A stretch of DNA of 64,000 nucleotides from Vicinamibacterales bacterium (lineage in GTDB: Bacteria; Acidobacteriota; Vicinamibacteria; Vicinamibacterales; Fen-181), in contig JBHGBL010000011.1 in the NCBI GenBank assembly GCA_041947015.1, positions 59,915-123,914 of the forward strand. Direction: 5' to 3'. The translations under genes and the position numbers were made by a program. Under the pieces are notes generated by a model, which worked only from the letters and a program-made list of their open reading frames with translations, was not told the origin of the DNA and searched no databases. Shown piece by piece: positions 53,629 through 62,546 of this stretch (positions within the stretch are counted from its first letter, which is position 1; each line of letters begins with the position of its first letter).

Positions 53629-55082
53629 GTGTTACCCGGCAGCGGGTCGTCGCGCCAGAAATCGGGTTACCCCAGGATAGGAGGTTGATGTGGGGGGAAC
53701 TCGAGTGGGACCAGCGGCGAAACGTGAGTATTTGAAGCGGATGCGAGAGCGGTACGAAGAGGCTGGCGGCGAAAAGCGGACGGAGTTGCTGGACGAGATG
53801 AGGGCCATGACGGGCTTTCATCGCAAGGCGCTGATCAGGGCGATGAACCGGCGGTCCGTGCCGCCGGGCCAGCGGTGCAAGAAGCGGGGACGGCCGCGGT
53901 TGTACGGCCGGCGAGTGGTGGGGGCTCTGCGGGTGATATGGGAGGCGGCGGACCACCCGTGGTCGGCACGGCTAAAAGCGCTCCTGCCGAGCTGGCTGCG
54001 ACATGCGCGCCGTCACGTGGCGATCTCGGATGAGACCGAGAAGCGGCTCCTGGAGATGGGCCCTCGGCAGATGGACCGATGCCTCGCGCCCTACAAGCGG
54101 GACCTGCGCCGGCGGATGTATGGGCGGACGAAACCGGGCACGTTGCTGAAGCATCACATTCCCCTGAAGACTGACCGCTGGGATGTGACCGAGCCGGGGT
54201 TTACGGAGGTGGACCTAGTGAGCCACAGCGGCGACTGTGCGGATGGCGAGTTCGCCCATTCAGTCAACCTGACGGACATCGAGAGCACGTAGGTCGAGAC
54301 GCGAGCGGTCATGGGCAAGAGCCAGGTGCGGGTCCAGGAGGCGCTGGCAAAGATGCGGGCCGACCTGCCCTTTTCGCTCAAGGGGATCGACTCGGACAAC
54401 GGCTCCGAATTCATCAACCACCACCTCTACCGGTACTGCAAGACGGAGGACATCCAGTTCACTCGGGGCCGGCCGTACAAGAAGGATGACAACGCTCACA
54501 ATGAGCAGAAGAACTGGACGCACGTCCGCAAACTGGTCGGGTACCAACGGCACGACTCGCAGGTGGCGGTCGATGCGCTGAACGACTTGTACGCCGAGGT
54601 CCGCTTGCTCCAGAACCTGTTTCTCCCATCAGTGAAGCTGATCGAGAAGAGAAGAAGCGTGTCGGCTCTCGGCTCCTGCGGAAGTACGACACGCCGCAGA
54701 CCCCGCTCGACCGACTGGTGAGCGGCGGCAAGGGAGACCCCAGGAAGTTACAGGCGCTGATGTGTCAGCGGGAGCGTCTTGAGCCGTTCGCGTTGGCCAA
54801 GCGGATCGATCAGAAGCTGGATCGAGTCTTCGGACTGGCGAACCGCCGCACACGTCCAGCAGACCCCATCAGAGTCTCGGCGGTGGCCCGGGGGCCTGTG
54901 GAAGCTGCCCGACCTGTGGAAGCACATAACGCTTCCACAAGGTCGTTGGAAAACCAAAGAGCGGTTTTTCCACAGCTACGCACAGGCCTGCTGCCAGGGG
55001 AAATCGGGCAAGCAAGAAGAAACACGGAGGCGCCAACCCGGTAACCCGAATATTGGCCCGACGATGAGCCGTTGGGTAACAC
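53629..55082 (+). mobile_element. Decayed IS element with roughly 43-bp imperfect terminal inverted repeats
   Basis: IRL 53629-53671 (GTGTTACCCGGCAGC...CGGGTTACC) matches the reverse complement of IRR 55040-55082 (GGTAACCCG...GGGTAACAC) at about 34 of 43 positions. It encloses an rve-type transposase reading frame. The flanks are AT-rich. I saw no clear target-site duplication. Confidence 0.75.
53690..55044 (+). pseudogene. DDE (integrase-core, rve) transposase, inactivated
   Basis: DDE context: EVDLVSHSG, GIDSDNGSEF, NAHNEQKNW. There is an in-frame TAG at 54290-54292 where relatives have Trp (TDIESTxVETRAV). A frameshift lies in the purine run around 54645-54660, and the continuation GSRLLRKYDTPQTPLDRLV reads in another frame. 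Confidence 0.75.
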
Positions 55083-55184: not shown

Positions 55185-56951
55185 CTACTGAATCTGTAGC
55201 GCTGCGTGTGAAAGCGGAACGCCGAGGGCCTCGCACTCTGTCGCCACCCGCCTCAACCTTGCCGGAGAAATGTCCGGGGAGGAAATCAGCACCTCGTCTA
55301 CATGGGCGGAGCGCAGGATGTCTGCGAGATCCTCGTAATCGCCGAGGACCGGGATGCCGAGTATTCTGCGCTTGTGGTTTCTCGGGTCGTCGTCGATGAA
55401 GCCGACGACTGTACGCGCCAGGGACGGGTTGTTCAACAGCCCCCGGCAGACGAGGACCCCCTGGTCGTCGGCGCCGTAGAGCAAAACCCGCCGTGACGTT
55501 CCGAACCGCGGCCGGAAGATCTCCTCGAAGAACCTCATCGAGAGCCGGCTGGCACCGACGAAGAGCATGAGAAGGATCGCGTCGATGAAGAACACGGCGT
55601 GAGAGTAGCCTTCCAGGCCCAATGCGAGTGCGACGACCACCACCGTGAGGGCGGTACCGAGCGCGGCAGCCTTGGCAATGGTGAAGGCGTCTCGGACCCC
55701 GGTGTACCTCCAGACGCCGTGGTGAACCTTGAGCACGAGGAAGCTCAGCGCCTGGCACGCGATCACGATCGGCATCGACTGCAGGAGCCGATCCGCCTGA
55801 GCGGCGAAGGCGTCCTCGAACCTGAGGATGTACGCCGTGTAGTAGGCCAGAGCGATAAGCATGACGTCGAGGGCGAGCGTGGCGACCTGCCTCTGGTGGG
55901 TGATGGTTACGACCAAGCGGAAGAGCCTGCTGTCGTCGATGTTCGCGGCCTCATCAGCCGGGTAGACCTTGATGCGGCTGAGGAACAGGCCGAGAACCGT
56001 GACCGAAAGGCCGAGAAACACCACCAGCACCGCGGTATAGGAGAGACCGTTCAGGTAGGTCACCGTTGCGATGCCGCCCGATGCGGCGGCCACAGCGTAC
56101 ATCGAGACGACCGCCCTTCTCTCGCTGAGTCCCAGTGCGACGAGCCTGTGCGAGGTATGGTCGCGGCCGCCCATCGAGACCGGCCGGCGCGCCAGCGTCC
56201 TGGTTACGGTAACGAAGGTCGTGTCGAAGATCGGGACGAGCAGCAGCAGGACCGGAAAGAGCAGTACCGAGACGACGCCCCGCGAGTACGGGTACCCTCC
56301 GGCCAGGCTCAGGCCCGAGATGAAGAATCCCGTAAAAAGGCTTCCTGCATCGCCCATGAAGATCGATGCGGGGGAGAAATTGTGAAAGAGAAACCCGACT
56401 GCCGCGCCCGCGAAGACTGCCGCCAGCGCCGCTCCGTCGTGGTTGCCGTCGAGGAGGAAGAAGGCAAGCCGGAAGCCGGCGGCTATCGCTGCGATACCGG
56501 CGCCCAGCCCGTCCATGTTGTCGAGCAAGTTGAAAGCGTTCGTGATGCCCACGACCCAGAAGAGGGTTAGCAGGACGTTGAAAACAGGGTAGGGCGTGAG
56601 GCGAAGCTGGAAGCCCATCGCCGCAAGCGAGGCGGCAACCAGGATCTCCACCCCGAGTTTCGTTTGAGGCTTGAGATTGTAAATGTCGTCGATGAGGCCG
56701 AGGAGGAAGATGATCGCGGCTCCAGCGAACAGCCACGACACCTGCGGAGACGAACTGATCGTGAACGGAGCAATGACGAGAACCGTCGCAGCTATGGCTA
56801 CCCCGCCGAGCAGCGGCACAGCCTTGCGGTTCCAGCGATCGTTGCAGGGGCGGGCGACGACGCCGAGGTGGAGGGCGACTCTCTTGGACACCGCAGTCAG
56901 CAGGGCGGAGAGCAGAGCGGCGAGAGCGAACCATGAGACGATGGCCGTCAT
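55185..56951 (-). CDS. WecA/MraY-family polyprenyl-phosphate sugar-1-phosphate transferase fused to a CapD/WbaP-type N-terminal TM + Rossmann-like module
   Basis: N-terminal half: LIDDIYNLKP and NAFNLLDNMDGLG. C-terminal half: 4 TM segments, then RRVLLYGADDQGVLVCRGL...VVGFIDDDPRNHKRRILGIPVLG. Confidence 0.8.
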   Translation of the reverse strand: MTAIVSWFALAALLSALLTAVSKRVALHLGVVARPCNDRWNRKAVPLLGGVAIAATVLVIAPFTISSSPQVSWLFAGAAIIFLLGLIDDIYNLKPQTKLGVEILVAASLAAMGFQLRLTPYPVFNVLLTLFWVVGITNAFNLLDNMDGLGAGIAAIAAGFRLAFFLLDGNHDGAALAAVFAGAAVGFLFHNFSPASIFMGDAGSLFTGFFISGLSLAGGYPYSRGVVSVLLFPVLLLLVPIFDTTFVTVTRTLARRPVSMGGRDHTSHRLVALGLSERRAVVSMYAVAAASGGIATVTYLNGLSYTAVLVVFLGLSVTVLGLFLSRIKVYPADEAANIDDSRLFRLVVTITHQRQVATLALDVMLIALAYYTAYILRFEDAFAAQADRLLQSMPIVIACQALSFLVLKVHHGVWRYTGVRDAFTIAKAAALGTALTVVVVALALGLEGYSHAVFFIDAILLMLFVGASRLSMRFFEEIFRPRFGTSRRVLLYGADDQGVLVCRGLLNNPSLARTVVGFIDDDPRNHKRRILGIPVLGDYEDLADILRSAHVDEVLISSPDISPARLRRVATECEALGVPLSHAALQIQ

Positions 56952-58296: not shown

Positions 58297-58572
58297 CGTG
58301 AGCCCTGGGGCTGCCGGCCCGCGCCCATCATCGGCCGGGTCGAGCGGCGGCGTCAAGTCCGACCAGACGAAAACCGCTCGCGCTCGACCTCCCGCCGCGA
58401 TAAAATGACACCTTCAAAGCGCCGATCCGACCGGCTTGACCGCAAGTCCCCATCAGGTCGTTCCGCCCACGGAAGCAGGCCTTCCAGGTCACGGCGCTCG
58501 ATCGGCCAGCGGCCAGTCGGGGCTGGCCGGCAAGGCGCGCATCCATTGGTTGCGCGACATCCGGAGGGTTCG

Positions 58573-58791
58573 ATGGGCATTCTGTCCGTTCTGGTGAGGT
58601 CCGGCGGAGGCGATCTGCTCCTGGCGTACATCGACCCCGGGACGGGCAGCATGATCATTCAGGTCGTGCTGGCCGCACTGGTCGGAGTAGCGCTGTCCGT
58701 GAGGCACTACTGGAGCGCGCTCACCTCGTGGTTCCGAAGGGGCCGGGCCGCGGGCAGCCGGTCGGGGGAGACGGGGGAGCGCAGGGATTGA
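58573..58791 (+). CDS. Small membrane protein (72 aa) with a YIDPGTGSMIIQ motif
   Basis: SD GGAGGG before ATG 58573. It has one TM segment (IIQVVLAALVGVALSV). Its stop overlaps the next gene's start. Confidence 0.5.
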   Translation: MGILSVLVRSGGGDLLLAYIDPGTGSMIIQVVLAALVGVALSVRHYWSALTSWFRRGRAAGSRSGETGERRD

Positions 58792-60188
58792 CCTCCAACG
58801 GGCCGATTGCCTCCTCGTTTCGTGACCCGAGCGGCTTCGTGTTCAGGCTCGATGGCACGCTGTACCGGCAGGTCAACGTCGCCTACCGCGACACCTACCG
58901 CCGCTTGATCGACTCGTCGCTGTACGAGAACCTCGTCGCGGCGCACCTGCTGGTACCCCACGAAGAGGTCGCGCTGGAGCCGGCGAGGCCCACCGAGGCC
59001 TGGAAAGTGATCCGGCCCGAGCCCGTGGACTTTGTTTCGTACCCGTACGAATGGTGTTTCAGCCAGCTCAAGGACGCGGCGCTCGCAACACTCGCGATCC
59101 AGAAGAGGGCACTGGATTTCGGCATGTCGCTCAAGGATGCGAGCGCCTACAACATCCAGTTCCACCGCGGCCGCCCGGTTCTCATCGACACTCTCTCGTT
59201 CGAGCCCTACAGGGAGGGCAGGCCCTGGCCCGCCTACAGGCAGTTCTGCCAGCATTTTCTGGCGCCGCTCGTCCTGATGCGCCGCACCGACGTGCGCCTT
59301 GCCCAGCTGCTGCGGACCAACATAGATGGTGTTCCCCTCGATCTCGCCAGTAGGCTTCTGCCTTTCCGCACGCATTTCACCTTCTCCGCCCTGGCCCACA
59401 TCCACCTGCACGCGAGCACTCAGAAGAGGTACGAGGCGCGGCCGGTGAACACGAGTCGGCTGAAGGTCAGCAGATCAGGAATGCTGGCGCTCGTGGAGAG
59501 CCTCGAGAAGGCCATCGGAAAGCTCGATTGGCGGCCGGGAAGGACGACGTGGGCCGACTACTACGGCGAGACGAACTACTCGAAACCGGCCTTCGAGCAC
59601 AAGAAGCAGGCGGTGGCGGAGTTCCTCGCGCGAGCCAGGCCGGGGATGGTATGGGACCTCGGTGCGAACACGGGCGTCTTCAGCGCGCTGGCAGCGCAGT
59701 GCGGCGCCATGACGGTGGCTTTCGACAGCGACCCGGCGGCCGTGGAGAAGCACTACCGCGAGTGCCGCAGGTCCGGAGCCGCACGTATCCTGCCACTTGC
59801 AGTGGACCTGCTGAACCCGAGTCCCTCCCTGGGATGGCACAATCATGAGAGGATGAGTCTTGTCGAGCGGGGCCCCGCCGACGTCGTCATGGCGCTGGCC
59901 CTGGTCCATCACCTCGCCATCGGCAACAACGTCCCGTTCGACCGGCTGGCGGAGTTCTTCGCAGCTCTTTGCAGCGGCTGGCTGATCGTCGAGTTCGTGC
60001 CGAAGTCCGACTCGCAGGTGCGGAGGCTCCTTGCCAGCCGCGAGGACGTGTTCCCGGACTACGATGAGGGTGTCTTCGAGAAGTCGTTCCGGAGCAGTTT
60101 CACCATAGAGGCTTCGCTGCGACTCCAACAGTCCGAGAGGACTCTGTACCTCATGCGGCGGCTGCCCCGAGCCGGCCAGCCAGCTTAG
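58788..60188 (+). CDS. Two-domain protein: unknown N-terminal domain plus a class I SAM-dependent methyltransferase
   Basis: N-terminal: FRDPSGFVFRLDGTLYRQV...YPYEWCFSQLKDAAL...ASAYNIQF. C-terminal: VWDLGANTGVFS and VMALALVHHL. Start uncertain (TTG 58788, or GTG 58728). Confidence 0.75.
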   Translation: MTSNGPIASSFRDPSGFVFRLDGTLYRQVNVAYRDTYRRLIDSSLYENLVAAHLLVPHEEVALEPARPTEAWKVIRPEPVDFVSYPYEWCFSQLKDAALATLAIQKRALDFGMSLKDASAYNIQFHRGRPVLIDTLSFEPYREGRPWPAYRQFCQHFLAPLVLMRRTDVRLAQLLRTNIDGVPLDLASRLLPFRTHFTFSALAHIHLHASTQKRYEARPVNTSRLKVSRSGMLALVESLEKAIGKLDWRPGRTTWADYYGETNYSKPAFEHKKQAVAEFLARARPGMVWDLGANTGVFSALAAQCGAMTVAFDSDPAAVEKHYRECRRSGAARILPLAVDLLNPSPSLGWHNHERMSLVERGPADVVMALALVHHLAIGNNVPFDRLAEFFAALCSGWLIVEFVPKSDSQVRRLLASREDVFPDYDEGVFEKSFRSSFTIEASLRLQQSERTLYLMRRLPRAGQPA

Positions 60189-60192
60189 GACC

Positions 60193-61629
60193 ATGTGCCG
60201 TCCGGGACGAATGATCGTTCACCCGATCCTCCTCGCGGCGTTCCCTGTGTTGTTCCTGTATTCACGCAACCGCGTGGAGGCCGGGGCAGACCAGGTCCCA
60301 CTTCCCATGCTCCTGTCTTTGGCGGGGGTGTCGCTGTTGTGGCTGCTCTTCGCGGTCCTGATGCGTAGCGCGCGGAAATCGGCCGTCGCGACGACTGTCT
60401 GCCTGTCCTTCTTCTTCGCATACGGGCATCTCCACGATTTGTTCCAGAGGTGGGGCGTTCCGTGGTCGAGGCACAGCCGCCTTCTGCCCGTCATGCTCCT
60501 CGCGTGCGGGTATTCGGTCTACTTCGTTTCCATTGCGAGGAGGAGCTTCGAAAGAACGACGCGCGCTTTGAACGGTGCCGCCGTCTTCCTCGTCGCCATC
60601 AACCTGAGCACAGCGGCCCTTCACTGGATCGGCCAGCCGGCGCTCAGGGCCGATGCTCCCAGAGCCGGCTTGGATGCATCGTCACGCTCGACCGGCGAGT
60701 CCCGCGCAGGCCTCCTGCCGGATATCTACTACATCGTGCTCGACGAGTACGCCCACCCAGACACGATGAGGCGCTTCTACGGGTACGTCGACGCCCCGCT
60801 CGTCGCGCACCTCGAGGAGCGGGGCTTCTTCGTTGCCTCCGCCAGCCAGTCCCCGGCCCACAGCAGCATCCGGTCGATAGCTTCGGTCCTGAACATGGAA
60901 CCGGTTCCGGCCGACGATGCCGACGGCCTGGTATGGGGCCGCATCAGGAACAACCGGGTGACCGCGTTCCTCAGATCTCGCGGATACTCCATCGTCTACA
61001 TCGGATCCTGGTTCGACGACGGAATCTACGAGGGAGGCGCGGACACGTATCGCAATTTCTATAGCTCGGGGGCTGGAGGTAGCCTGTCAGGCGCCTTCCC
61101 ACATACGTTCTGGAACACGACCATGCTGGCGCCTTTCTACGACCGGCTGGTTCGGACCCACTTCGAGACGTACTACCGGGGCGGCCTCATGGCGACAATC
61201 GAGTACCTGAAGGAGCTGCCGCGCGCCCCGGGACCGAAGTTCGTCTTCGCACACGTTCTCTGTCCGCACGAGCCGTTCGTGTTCGGCCGGCTCGGTGAAG
61301 TGGTCAGCCCCACGAACTGGAACAACTACGCCGACAAGCGATACTACCGGGACCAGTACATCTTCATAAGCCACGAGATGTCCAGGGTGGTGGATTCGCT
61401 GCTCGCCCGCTCGGCCGCGCAGCCGATCGTGGTCGTGCAGTCCGATCACGGATTGAGGGCGCACCATCCCGGCATACAGGTCCCGAACGACGAGTGGTTG
61501 AAGATACTCAACGCGTATTACGCCCCCCGCGCAGAGGAGGCGCTCTTCGACGCCGTCTCCCCCATGCAGACGTTTCGCCTGATATTCGAGCGCTACTTCG
61601 GAGCCGGTGAGGTGCCCGGCGAGAGATGA
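60193..61629 (+). CDS. Polytopic membrane protein with an alkaline-phosphatase-superfamily (sulfatase/LTA-synthase-like) ectodomain
   Basis: About 5 N-terminal TM segments, then IYYIVLDEYAHPD and VVVQSDHGLR motifs. Confidence 0.7.
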   Translation: MCRPGRMIVHPILLAAFPVLFLYSRNRVEAGADQVPLPMLLSLAGVSLLWLLFAVLMRSARKSAVATTVCLSFFFAYGHLHDLFQRWGVPWSRHSRLLPVMLLACGYSVYFVSIARRSFERTTRALNGAAVFLVAINLSTAALHWIGQPALRADAPRAGLDASSRSTGESRAGLLPDIYYIVLDEYAHPDTMRRFYGYVDAPLVAHLEERGFFVASASQSPAHSSIRSIASVLNMEPVPADDADGLVWGRIRNNRVTAFLRSRGYSIVYIGSWFDDGIYEGGADTYRNFYSSGAGGSLSGAFPHTFWNTTMLAPFYDRLVRTHFETYYRGGLMATIEYLKELPRAPGPKFVFAHVLCPHEPFVFGRLGEVVSPTNWNNYADKRYYRDQYIFISHEMSRVVDSLLARSAAQPIVVVQSDHGLRAHHPGIQVPNDEWLKILNAYYAPRAEEALFDAVSPMQTFRLIFERYFGAGEVPGER

Positions 61630-62546
61630 AGAGTCAATCGCCAGGCGCGGGGATCCTGAGGTTCCTGGCCACCCGCCGGACGGCGGTGATCGTTCACGGT
61701 GCGATCCTTTCCGCGTTCTTCGCCTTCCTGTTGTTCGGGTCCGACGCCCTGTTCGATAGATTGTCCGGCACGGACGACAGGGCAAGGCGGCAGCGCGTGT
61801 CGCTCCCGAAGGAAACCGAGGGGCTGGAGTGGTCGATAGATCGCGTGGAGGTGCTTCCTGGGGTCATCGAGGTGGAGGGGTGGGCCTTCATAGCCGGTCA
61901 GGACGCTAGCGCGAGCAGGATCTACGTGGTGCTGAAGTCCGCTTCCGACGCCTATGTTTTCGACACGTTTCCGAGGGTGAGGCCCGATGTGCTGCACGCC
62001 TACTCTGCGCTCGGCGAGAACGTGGACCGTTCGGGGTTCGTGACTTTCATTCCTCGCGACGCGGTTCCGGGATCGGGCCTCACCTTGGGCATCTATGTCG
62101 AGGGGAAGGTGCTGTCCACGCTCCAGTACACAGACCGGGTAATCGGGGGCGAATCCAGGCGGCAGCAGGTGGCGCTGCCTCCGCCAGGGACCGGAGCTCT
62201 GAATTACGCCGTGGACACGTGCGCTCCGCGGAACGGCGTCACCGCTGTAGAGGGTTGGGCGTTCATCGAGGGCGCGAACGCGCGGAGCAGCCGCACGTAT
62301 GTGGTGCTTCGATCGGATGCCGATACCTACGTGTTCGACACCTTCTGGCGAAGGAGGCTCGACATAGGCAGATCGTTCGCCGGGCACGGCAGCAATCTGG
62401 GCGCCTCCGGGTTCGTTGCGTTCATCCCGGCGGGAGCGGTCCCGCCCGCGAACTACAGGGTAGGGGTCTACGTCAAGGACGGCGGCACAGAGGCCTTCTC
62501 GTTCGCCGAAGGTCAACCGTGCGAAGCCCTGGCCGCTTCACGGTAG
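61626..62546 (+). CDS. TM-anchored protein with two tandem roughly 95-aa repeats, unknown function
   Basis: ATGA overlap with the upstream stop. Repeat 1 has VEGWAFIAGQDASASRIYVVLKS..YVFDTF and repeat 2 has VEGWAFIEGANARSSRTYVVLRS..YVFDTF. Confidence 0.65.
   Translation: MKSQSPGAGILRFLATRRTAVIVHGAILSAFFAFLLFGSDALFDRLSGTDDRARRQRVSLPKETEGLEWSIDRVEVLPGVIEVEGWAFIAGQDASASRIYVVLKSASDAYVFDTFPRVRPDVLHAYSALGENVDRSGFVTFIPRDAVPGSGLTLGIYVEGKVLSTLQYTDRVIGGESRRQQVALPPPGTGALNYAVDTCAPRNGVTAVEGWAFIEGANARSSRTYVVLRSDADTYVFDTFWRRRLDIGRSFAGHGSNLGASGFVAFIPAGAVPPANYRVGVYVKDGGTEAFSFAEGQPCEALAASR

Follow-up and report, generated by a model that had tools for sequence, protein, structure and literature searches.

Gene Organization of the Locus

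The stretch of DNA analyzed here (the window, 64,000 nucleotides; positions 59,915 to 123,914 of contig JBHGBL010000011.1) belongs to a metagenome-assembled genome (MAG) of the Vicinamibacterales (Acidobacteriota) and harbors a module of four genes, g1 to g4, that was first noticed in a prediction made from the sequence alone. The module encodes a microprotein (g1), a protein combining a kinase-like domain with a class I S-adenosylmethionine (SAM)-dependent methyltransferase (g2), a polytopic membrane protein with a Sulfatase-fold domain (g3), and a membrane-anchored protein with two tandem domains (g4). The first three of these genes constitute an autonomous and widely distributed cassette that may serve to decorate the cell envelope. 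All four genes claimed by the original prediction on the plus strand are present in the list of open reading frames (ORFs) and, together with their main motifs, are arranged as follows (TM, transmembrane):

58573–58791, plus strand: g1, 72 aa, ATG start; the NCBI call (P0241) has the same 72 aa
58627–58650, plus strand: g1 signature Y-I-D-P-G-T-G-S, residues 19–26
58788–60188, plus strand: g2, 466 aa, TTG start; kinase-like and methyltransferase fusion
59133–59189, plus strand: kinase-like catalytic core of g2, K116-D117-x4-N122 loop and DFG-equivalent D134 (IDTLSF)
59649–59675, plus strand: methyltransferase motif I of g2, V-W-D-L-G-A-N-T-G, SAM-binding loop; invariant
60193–61629, plus strand: g3, 478 aa, or 472 aa from ATG 60211; five TM helices and Sulfatase-fold domain
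61626–62546, plus strand: g4, 306 aa; TM anchor and two tandem domains

The picture of a tightly coupled, co-transcribed unit tied to envelope-glycan genes is supported. Both the TTGA overlap of g1 and g2 (58788–58791) and the ATGA overlap of g3 and g4 (61626–61629) are seen in the sequence, while the 4-nt gap described between g2 and g3 (60188/60193) applies if g3 begins at ATG 60193 but becomes 22 nt under the NCBI start (P0121, 472 aa from ATG 60211). The TTG start of g2 is shared with NCBI, since the corresponding call (P0001) likewise comprises 466 aa at 100 % identity and coverage, and it is backed by the N-termini of homologues, with MTSNGPIASSFRDPSGF of the window matching MASNGNIASSFRDPSGF of P0083. 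The motifs quoted for the four proteins, that is, YIDPGTGSMIIQ, FRDPSGFVF, YPYEWCF, ASAYNIQF, VWDLGANTG, IYYIVLDEY, QSDHG, and both copies of VEGWAF, were all found. A recent horizontal acquisition of the module is unsupported, as its GC content (0.62–0.67) resembles that of the flanks and the g2 of the window shares no more than 65 % identity with its closest homologue.

Distribution and Conservation of the Cassette

Homologues of g2 number more than 8000 at 90 % clustering and were confirmed in 590 of 599 candidate stretches from a collection of species-representative genomes, the carriers being mostly uncultured anaerobic lineages (Chloroflexota, Zixibacteria, Planctomycetota, Aminicenantes, Omnitrophota, candidate phyla radiation (CPR), and others). 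For the analysis of gene content, 80 species-representative loci from more than 15 phyla were fetched and every ORF was clustered. According to the taxon labels of the MAG records, these loci span Chloroflexota, Zixibacteria, Planctomycetota, Ignavibacteria, Clostridia, Actinomycetota, Nitrospirota, Omnitrophota, Aminicenantes, Krumholzibacteriota, syntrophic Deltaproteobacteria, Armatimonadota, Bipolaricaulota, one CPR bacterium, and others.

Only three families are widely common to the 80 loci, namely g2 (77 loci), g3 (60), and g1 (52 under strict clustering, 68 by tblastn, and 70 sources, the window included, by motif); the next-commonest ORF family is found in 11 loci only, and a Pfam scan of 240 flanking ORFs revealed no conserved fourth partner. 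The order of the genes is equally constant. With tblastn, g1 was located immediately ahead of g2 in 68 of the 77 testable loci, and most of the other nine show the g1 motif on inspection, which brings the figure to about 75 of 77. Directly downstream of g2, a gene of the g3 family is found in 43 of 66 testable loci, and seven of the eight other downstream neighbors that were scanned encode larger membrane Sulfatase-family proteins. Between the g1 stop and the codon with which the FRDP motif of g2 opens lie no more than 36 nt in 59 of 64 loci, 33 of which show exactly 19 nt; because about ten residues precede FRDP, g2 starts inside g1 in most genomes. The g2 stop and the N-terminal motif of g3 are likewise separated by only 14–34 nt (25 of 26 loci). 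Packing this tight recurs in dozens of phyla and exceeds what chance would give. The PGTGS protein, the FRDPSGF methyltransferase, and the sulfatase-like protein, whose co-occurrence across phyla had been put forward as a check of the original prediction, thus indeed occur together, and the idea of a functional unit stands. The size of that unit, however, had to be corrected from four genes to three (g1–g2–g3), with g4 occurring in only three of the 80 loci (L004, L010, and L030) and in one additional locus from a Dehalococcoidia genome (L081).

Conservation differs markedly within the cassette. Over the same 51 loci, the pairwise identity of g2 averages 61 % (minimum 52 %) as compared to 35 % (minimum 20 %) for g3, and g3 is moreover present as tandem paralogues in two to four copies in several loci (L035, L046, L039, L011, L044, and L075). 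Such a contrast would be expected if a conserved part makes the donor and a diversified part is specific for the acceptor.

The module had also been regarded as an accessory of the particular glycan cluster in which it resides. This view could not be upheld, as the cassette is autonomous: its contexts range from STT3/AglB-type genes to glycosyltransferases of family 2 (GT2) to the Wzm/Wzt exporter, without a conserved fourth partner. The flanks vary but lean to envelope-glycan genes, including GT2, GT4, Wzy_C, PMT_2, STT3/AglB, sugar-nucleotide enzymes, epimerases, extra sulfatase-like genes, and Wzm/Wzt.

Several individual loci illustrate this variety. A GT2 gene is situated near the cassette in an Ignavibacteria locus. 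In the Dehalococcoidia (L081/L082, 6967–9446), the cassette is immediately preceded by the gene of an STT3/AglB-type oligosaccharyltransferase and followed by an extended series of sugar-nucleotide modification genes, a context that hints at protein or S-layer glycosylation in bacteria without peptidoglycan. In the cultured Pelotomaculum terephthalicicum JT (L022, 7702–14246), g1 and g2 are followed by the gene of an 856-aa membrane Sulfatase-family protein, which matches the LtaS model weakly, and then directly by genes for Wzm and for a Wzt that includes the carbohydrate-binding domain Wzt_C; upstream of the cassette lies the gene of a Wzy_C-TPR protein. Lastly, the sole locus with an archaeal label (L040, Methanomicrobia) carries an HldE-like kinase/cytidylyltransferase fusion, an isomerase with a SIS domain, and an epimerase next to the cassette. 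These adjoining heptose-pathway genes were taken as bacterial-type and the label may reflect mis-binning or horizontal transfer; the archaeal occurrence is doubtful and was not relied on.

A Kinase-Like Domain Fused to a Methyltransferase

The full-length AlphaFold model of g2 reached a predicted local distance difference test score (pLDDT) of 82 and a predicted template modeling score (pTM) of 0.87, and this whole-chain pTM indicates that the predicted structure is one compact two-domain unit, with a kinase-like domain at residues ∼1–250 and a class I SAM methyltransferase at residues ∼268–466. NCBI annotates the protein as ‘class I SAM-dependent methyltransferase’ only, and NCBIfam matches are confined to the methyltransferase region. 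That the C-terminus is a class I SAM methyltransferase, as originally proposed, is confirmed by fold matches, the invariant motif I, and an invariant D313 downstream of it, which is followed by an equally invariant D340-L-x-N343-P344. Foldseek aligned the full model with ChlM, NodS, PrmA, and the methyltransferase of WbdD (E = 4e-8 to 8e-6; for the first three, 4e-8 to 4e-6), and the Pfam family Methyltransf_23 came close with 25 bits at a cut-off of 27.

No function had been assigned to the N-terminal domain, but its fold now appears to be protein-kinase-like and its catalytic motifs intact. Methyltransferases dominated the Foldseek matches of the full model, and the N-terminal domain was modeled separately (pLDDT 73); its top 50 matches are all protein-kinase-like folds, with PknG as the best (1e-4), followed by RioK1, PAK1, and CDK12. 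The residues of the putative phosphotransfer core are strongly conserved as well: K116, D117, N122, and D134 are invariant in an alignment of 15 sequences (A2), and D117, N122, and D134 are also invariant in 32 full-length sequences (A1), in several of which K116 is replaced by Arg. Around this core, the predicted secondary structure runs from a strand through the catalytic loop and two further strands to the Asp. Judging from the modeled fold and these motifs rather than from sequence homology, the N-terminal domain is an atypical kinase-like domain with an intact predicted phosphotransfer core. Because this domain is protein-kinase-like, g2 is described as a kinase–methyltransferase fusion.

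A Microprotein with an Invariant Octapeptide

The microprotein g1 carries a motif in its N-terminal part, then a single TM helix, and ends in a basic, amphipathic tail. Six-frame translation revealed this motif, Y-[LIV]-D-[PA]-G-[TS]-G-S, once in 69 of the 70 sources and twice in the remaining one (L035), that is, 71 times in all, and always 33–51 residues ahead of a stop codon. Its invariant positions are Y1, D3, G7, S8, and Q12. Most genomes encode a Sec-type signal peptide that ends in A-x-A (AHA, AYA, or ALA) directly before the motif, so that the earlier description of g1 as a single-TM protein holds for the mature form, which has one TM helix, but not for the primary product, which in most genomes starts with a cleavable signal. 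In the mature protein of approximately 45–55 residues, the octapeptide leads into a short TM helix, which contains an invariant Gln and a small-xxx-small motif; a conserved Lys and a basic amphipathic helix (xFWKKIKxFFxxLF) come next. By the positive-inside rule, this basic helix would be cytoplasmic and the octapeptide would face outward.

The g1 of the window and a few others lack the signal peptide. In the window, the reading frame is open upstream to an ATG at 58405 (58405–58572, plus strand), which would give a protein of 128 aa, with an extension that is Arg/Ser-rich and devoid of a hydrophobic signal peptide. The absence of a Sec signal from this copy follows from the support that both NCBI and the homologues lend to the 72-aa form. 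A protein homologue search with these 72 aa returned three matches, and the family was characterized from the loci instead; Pfam and NCBIfam contain no curated family for it. A role of the motif as C-terminal sorting signal (PEP-CTERM or LPXTG-like) was rejected, as it occurs only in the microprotein across the 70 sources and never at the end of a larger protein; furthermore, no sortase or exosortase family recurs near the cassette in the Pfam scan of flanking ORFs. At L035 (3138–11547), the second, nearly identical g1 precedes a g3 paralogue without g2, which suggests that g1 may also work with g3.

A Membrane Protein of the Sulfatase Fold

The third protein, g3, comprises five N-terminal TM helices and a domain recognized by the Pfam Sulfatase model (PF00884) with 25.4 bits (cut-off 25, E = 1e-5, residues 178–423); a precomputed match to the same model exists for many, though not all, homologues. 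D184, N234, H359, and D418 are invariant in the alignment, and S218 and H419 are at least 90 % conserved. The nucleophile region reads S218-Q-S-P-A-H in the window and S-x-T-x-x-x-x-T in the family consensus, with no x-P-x-R after it, and the C/S-x-P-x-R formylglycine motif is absent from the aligned g3. Because this motif is missing, g3 is not a true sulfatase. Of its original portrayal as a polytopic sulfatase/lipoteichoic acid synthase-like protein, the TM helices and the Sulfatase fold thus stood, whereas “sulfatase” is to be read as a label of the fold only. Positively charged loops between TM2 and TM3 and between TM4 and TM5, as read from the alignment, would place the catalytic domain outside the cell.

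In its layout, g3 is reminiscent of LtaS, EptA (MCR), OpgB, and GacH, with which it shares five N-terminal TM helices, a (presumably) outward-facing Sulfatase-fold domain, and the absence of a formylglycine motif. The conserved positions also fit the LtaS/EptA type, with an acidic residue as predicted first metal ligand, a putative hydroxyl nucleophile some 35 residues further on, and a D-H pair near the C-terminus. In contrast to these enzymes, g3 employs Ser rather than Thr as predicted nucleophile, and even a family profile gave no significant sequence match to a solved structure of LtaS, EptA, or a sulfatase. A genetic tie to a kinase–methyltransferase, as observed for g3, is to our knowledge not known for LtaS/EptA-type enzymes.

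An Accessory Protein with Tandem Domains

The portrayal of g4 as a TM-anchored protein made of two VEGWAF repeats proved correct: one N-terminal TM anchor precedes tandem domains of ∼120 aa (61776–62150 and 62151–62543) that are 48 % identical over 108 aa (E = 3e-33). Neither Pfam nor NCBIfam nor PDB holds a sequence match, yet the domain is found in 730 representative protein clusters, some with up to six matched stretches and one fused to a DUF2142 membrane protein. At the Dehalococcoidia locus L081, a g4-like protein of 184 aa with a single repeat follows g3. The loci bearing g4 belong to a Chloroflexota sub-lineage whose g3 is closest to that of the window (39–46 % identity); because these loci share the closest g3, the g3–g4 pair looks like a lineage-specific extension. 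Hence g4 is regarded as a lineage-specific accessory; it is probably extracytoplasmic and probably acts as a glycan-binding module.

Proposed Function

Taken together, we propose that the three components g1–g2–g3, drawing on ATP and SAM, attach a phosphate-containing, possibly methylated group to the cell envelope, a reading to which we assign a probability of roughly 0.5. It builds on gene structure, co-occurrence, folds, catalytic motifs, and differential conservation. In the presumed order of events, the kinase-like domain of g2, acting in the cytoplasm because ATP and SAM are needed, would phosphorylate an invariant membrane-proximal substrate at the expense of ATP, and the methyltransferase domain would then add a methyl group to the product, either at the phosphate itself or at a neighboring group. 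The microprotein, whose translation is in fixed coupling with that of g2, might tether g2 to the membrane and/or couple it to the outer face, where g3 would transfer the phospho-substituent, conceivably from a lipid-linked donor made by g2, to surface acceptors by means of its Ser nucleophile and an Asp/His metal site like that of LtaS and EptA. In this genome, g4 may aid g3 in engaging the acceptor. The combination of a conserved g2 with a diversified g3 leads to this favored model, in which g2 works on an invariant substrate and g3 on lineage-specific acceptors.

Precedents exist for kinase and methyltransferase activities that jointly place a terminal methyl-phosphate on glycans, namely WbdD and ORF6 of the Klebsiella pneumoniae O7 cluster (PMC11231755). 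A division into a conserved and a variable part is also characteristic of Gtr-type and related three-component glycan modification systems (PMC11127046). By analogy, the cassette may be compared with GtrABC and with the trio of polyprenyl-phosphoribose synthase, flippase, and GT-C enzyme, in which a cytoplasmic donor enzyme and a membrane component cooperate with a variable outward transferase that may carry or recruit a carbohydrate-binding module (PMC11127046). Unlike these systems, however, the cassette lacks a glycosyltransferase, would transfer a phospho-substituent instead of a sugar, and contains a single-TM microprotein in place of a multi-TM flippase.

The combination of methylation and phospho-substituent transfer suggested by the original prediction is therefore still the best reading, in that the parts fit, although the activity itself is a prediction. 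The accompanying statement that none of the parts has a defined substrate also stands, as no curated family, solved structure, or publication assigns one, and no description of the cassette was found in Pfam, NCBIfam, PADLOC, PDB, or the searchable literature.

A number of points weigh against the proposed function. The kinase call derives from a model of medium confidence (pLDDT 73) and low TM-scores (0.35–0.43), and searches against Pfam (residues 1–262, E up to 10), NCBIfam, and PDB (phmmer and family profile) yielded no link to kinases at the sequence level. An invariant Arg27 occupies the position on strand 3 at which the ATP-binding Lys is expected, and the alignment shows no invariant acidic residue in the helix 31–51, the would-be helix C. 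Atypical kinases do vary at the positions of the ATP-anchoring Lys and the helix C Glu. With regard to g3, the Sulfatase cut-off is cleared by 0.4 bits only, and no significant sequence relative was found in PDB, the best hit of a 34-sequence profile having E = 0.2. Furthermore, about eight loci with g1–g2 contain no sulfatase-like gene inside the fetched flank, and g3 may therefore not be obligatory. The envelope-gene signal in the flanks is weak and amounts to at most five to seven of ∼120 neighbors per family. Finally, we know of no precedent for a single-TM peptide that functions as lipid translocator.

In a more detailed version of the proposal, a pathway not recognized so far and present in many phyla would equip surface molecules with a methyl-phosphate or related phospho-methyl group from a new, non-sugar, lipid-linked donor: at the inner membrane face, g2 would phosphorylate and then methylate a universal carrier such as polyprenyl phosphate, oligomers of g1 would help to present or translocate the small head group, and the diversified g3 paralogues would pass it to different acceptors and release the carrier. 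In such detail, the scenario is distinctly unlikely.

Alternative Explanations

Although unlikely on the whole, the main rival is a chain terminator of the WbdD type, in which g2 would cap the non-reducing end of a cytoplasmically polymerized glycan with methyl-phosphate and the cap would set the chain length and be read by the carbohydrate-binding domain of an ATP-binding cassette (ABC) exporter, with g3 as a separate decoration enzyme that acts later. The resemblance to WbdD and to K. pneumoniae O7 ORF6, both kinase and methyltransferase terminators, is that one cytoplasmic polypeptide acting at the membrane unites a kinase-like domain with a class I methyltransferase and is encoded in glycan clusters (PMC11231755). 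The methyltransferase of WbdD also ranks among the structural matches of g2. The main support comes from P. terephthalicicum JT, where the cassette directly precedes Wzm and a Wzt with Wzt_C, and a Clostridia MAG (L013) likewise has Wzm and a long Wzt nearby. However, only three of the 80 loci have Wzm/Wzt genes close to the cassette, because of which this model was demoted to the main rival, and there are none in the window or in the 7.6 kb beyond its end. The architecture also differs. In WbdD, the methyltransferase comes first and the kinase second, followed by a coiled-coil ruler and a C-terminal membrane-binding amphipathic helix (PMC11231755), whereas in g2 the kinase-like domain precedes the methyltransferase and the chain stops at residue 466, lacking a long helix at its end, a coiled-coil ruler, and an amphipathic anchor. 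There is no detectable sequence similarity between the two proteins, and WbdD is outside the top 50 Foldseek matches of the kinase-like domain. Moreover, g2 is paired with a microprotein and a membrane enzyme, is rarely near an ABC exporter, and is far more conserved across phyla; its 52–65 % identity would be unexpected for enzymes acting on lineage-specific glycans, and the strict pairing with g1 would go unexplained. In its predicted function, g2 resembles WbdD but is not a member of its family.

In another scenario, the microprotein itself is the substrate or product: g2 would phosphorylate and/or methylate g1, or g3 would modify its YxDPGTGS end, giving a modified membrane peptide with a structural or signaling role. 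Consistent with this, no pairing is stricter than that of g1 and g2, which overlap in most genomes, an invariant Tyr, Asp, Thr/Ser, and Ser lie within the eight residues of the motif, and one structural match of the kinase-like domain is CuvL, a lanthipeptide synthetase that phosphorylates its peptide. The second g1 at L035, ahead of a g3 paralogue without g2, would fit as well. We nevertheless regard this as improbable, as the motif follows a cleavable signal peptide in most genomes and would hence lie outside the cell, away from cytoplasmic ATP and SAM, while the cytoplasmic tail offers no invariant hydroxyl residue. In addition, neither the clustering nor the flank scans revealed a conserved protease, exporter, or immunity gene nearby.

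LtaS and EptA-type enzymes take phospholipid head groups as donors, and the cassette might accordingly remodel lipid head groups, with g2 phosphorylating and N-methylating a lipid or head-group precursor and g3 moving the head group from lipid to lipid or onto envelope molecules; lipid homeostasis, not the decoration of glycans, would then be the primary role. A universal lipid substrate would explain the conservation of g2, and the D-L-x-N-P-x-P sequence after strand 4 of the methyltransferase may be reminiscent of (D/N)PP(Y/F), the motif of amino-methyltransferases. Still, this explanation is quite improbable: the flank scans revealed no conserved lipid-synthesis genes, and the recurring neighbors are glycan genes.

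Very improbable, lastly, is a mobile conflict or defense system akin to bacteriophage exclusion (BREX) type 2/Pgl, in which the same three superfamilies (PglW kinase, PglX methyltransferase, and PglZ alkaline-phosphatase-fold protein) share one mobile cassette, for even though g1–g2–g3 is self-contained, occurs in many unrelated contexts, and yields a weak PADLOC match (2e-6) to the methyltransferase mad2, that match is limited to the generic methyltransferase core, g1, g3, and g4 have no PADLOC match, the cassette has no ATPase and g2 no DNA methyltransferase architecture or DNA-recognition domain, g3 is a polytopic membrane enzyme with a predicted outward-facing domain, the GC content matches the host, and no defense genes recur nearby in the flank scans. 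A known anti-phage defense system was rejected on the PADLOC outcome.

Novelty and Significance

The superfamily of each enzymatic part is known, as are kinase–methyltransferase glycan modifiers and LtaS/EptA-type transferases. What is new is the kinase-like family, which has no curated model, the order of the fusion, the obligatory pairing with a microprotein, the tie to a divergent clade of membrane alkaline-phosphatase-fold enzymes, and the very wide spread of the cassette. The proposed decoration of the cell envelope offers a testable function for three large families of hypothetical proteins and points to an envelope modification that is widespread but lacking in model organisms. A modification of this kind would bear on surface charge, on recognition by phages and antibodies, and on the way in which the envelopes of uncultured phyla are read. 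If the lipid-linked donor pathway were true, it would define both a new family of atypical kinases and a new functional class of microproteins. With P. terephthalicicum JT, a cultured carrier opens the hypothesis to experiment.

Genomic Surroundings of the Window Copy

Two further features to the left of the module help to delimit the cluster in which the window copy resides:

53690–54721, plus strand: putative frameshifted/decayed insertion sequence (IS), ORFs of 200 and 136 aa, the second with an rve match (E = 4e-4) below the Pfam cut-off
55185–56951, minus strand: chimeric initiator, 588 aa, WecA/MraY-type Glycos_transf_4 plus C-terminal TM and CoA_binding_3 region

The WecA-type initiator (Glycos_transf_4, E = 7e-32) and the GT2 gene reported at the left of the module were both verified, as were the two GT4 genes at its right, the second of which extends past the window end. 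The CoA_binding_3 region of the initiator matches the N-terminal half of WcaJ/WbaP-type phosphoglycosyl transferases, with no catalytic Bac_transf domain. As to the decayed IS, two ORFs in different frames are indeed present, but the support for an IS consists in the weak rve match. This putative remnant looks like the left border of the glycan cluster; to the left of it, metabolic genes are found (lactate permease, aldehyde ferredoxin oxidoreductase, aldehyde dehydrogenase, and glutamine synthetase). Because of these metabolic genes, the module is placed near the left edge of the cluster. It had been described as lying inside the cluster, and it is indeed part of it, but only two genes from the border and not deep inside. 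On the opposite side, the 3′ end of g4 (plus strand) and that of the convergent GT4 gene (minus strand) overlap by 34 nt (62513–62546), which leaves a terminator no space between the two genes.

Past the end of the window, the same contig (L087, 3378–12494) continues with two GT4 genes, a 519-aa protein, a methyltransferase, a GT2, proteins of 571 and 351 aa, and a Wzy_C protein; the 519-, 571-, and 351-aa proteins have no Pfam match. The cluster that carries the window cassette is a Wzy-type glycan cluster.

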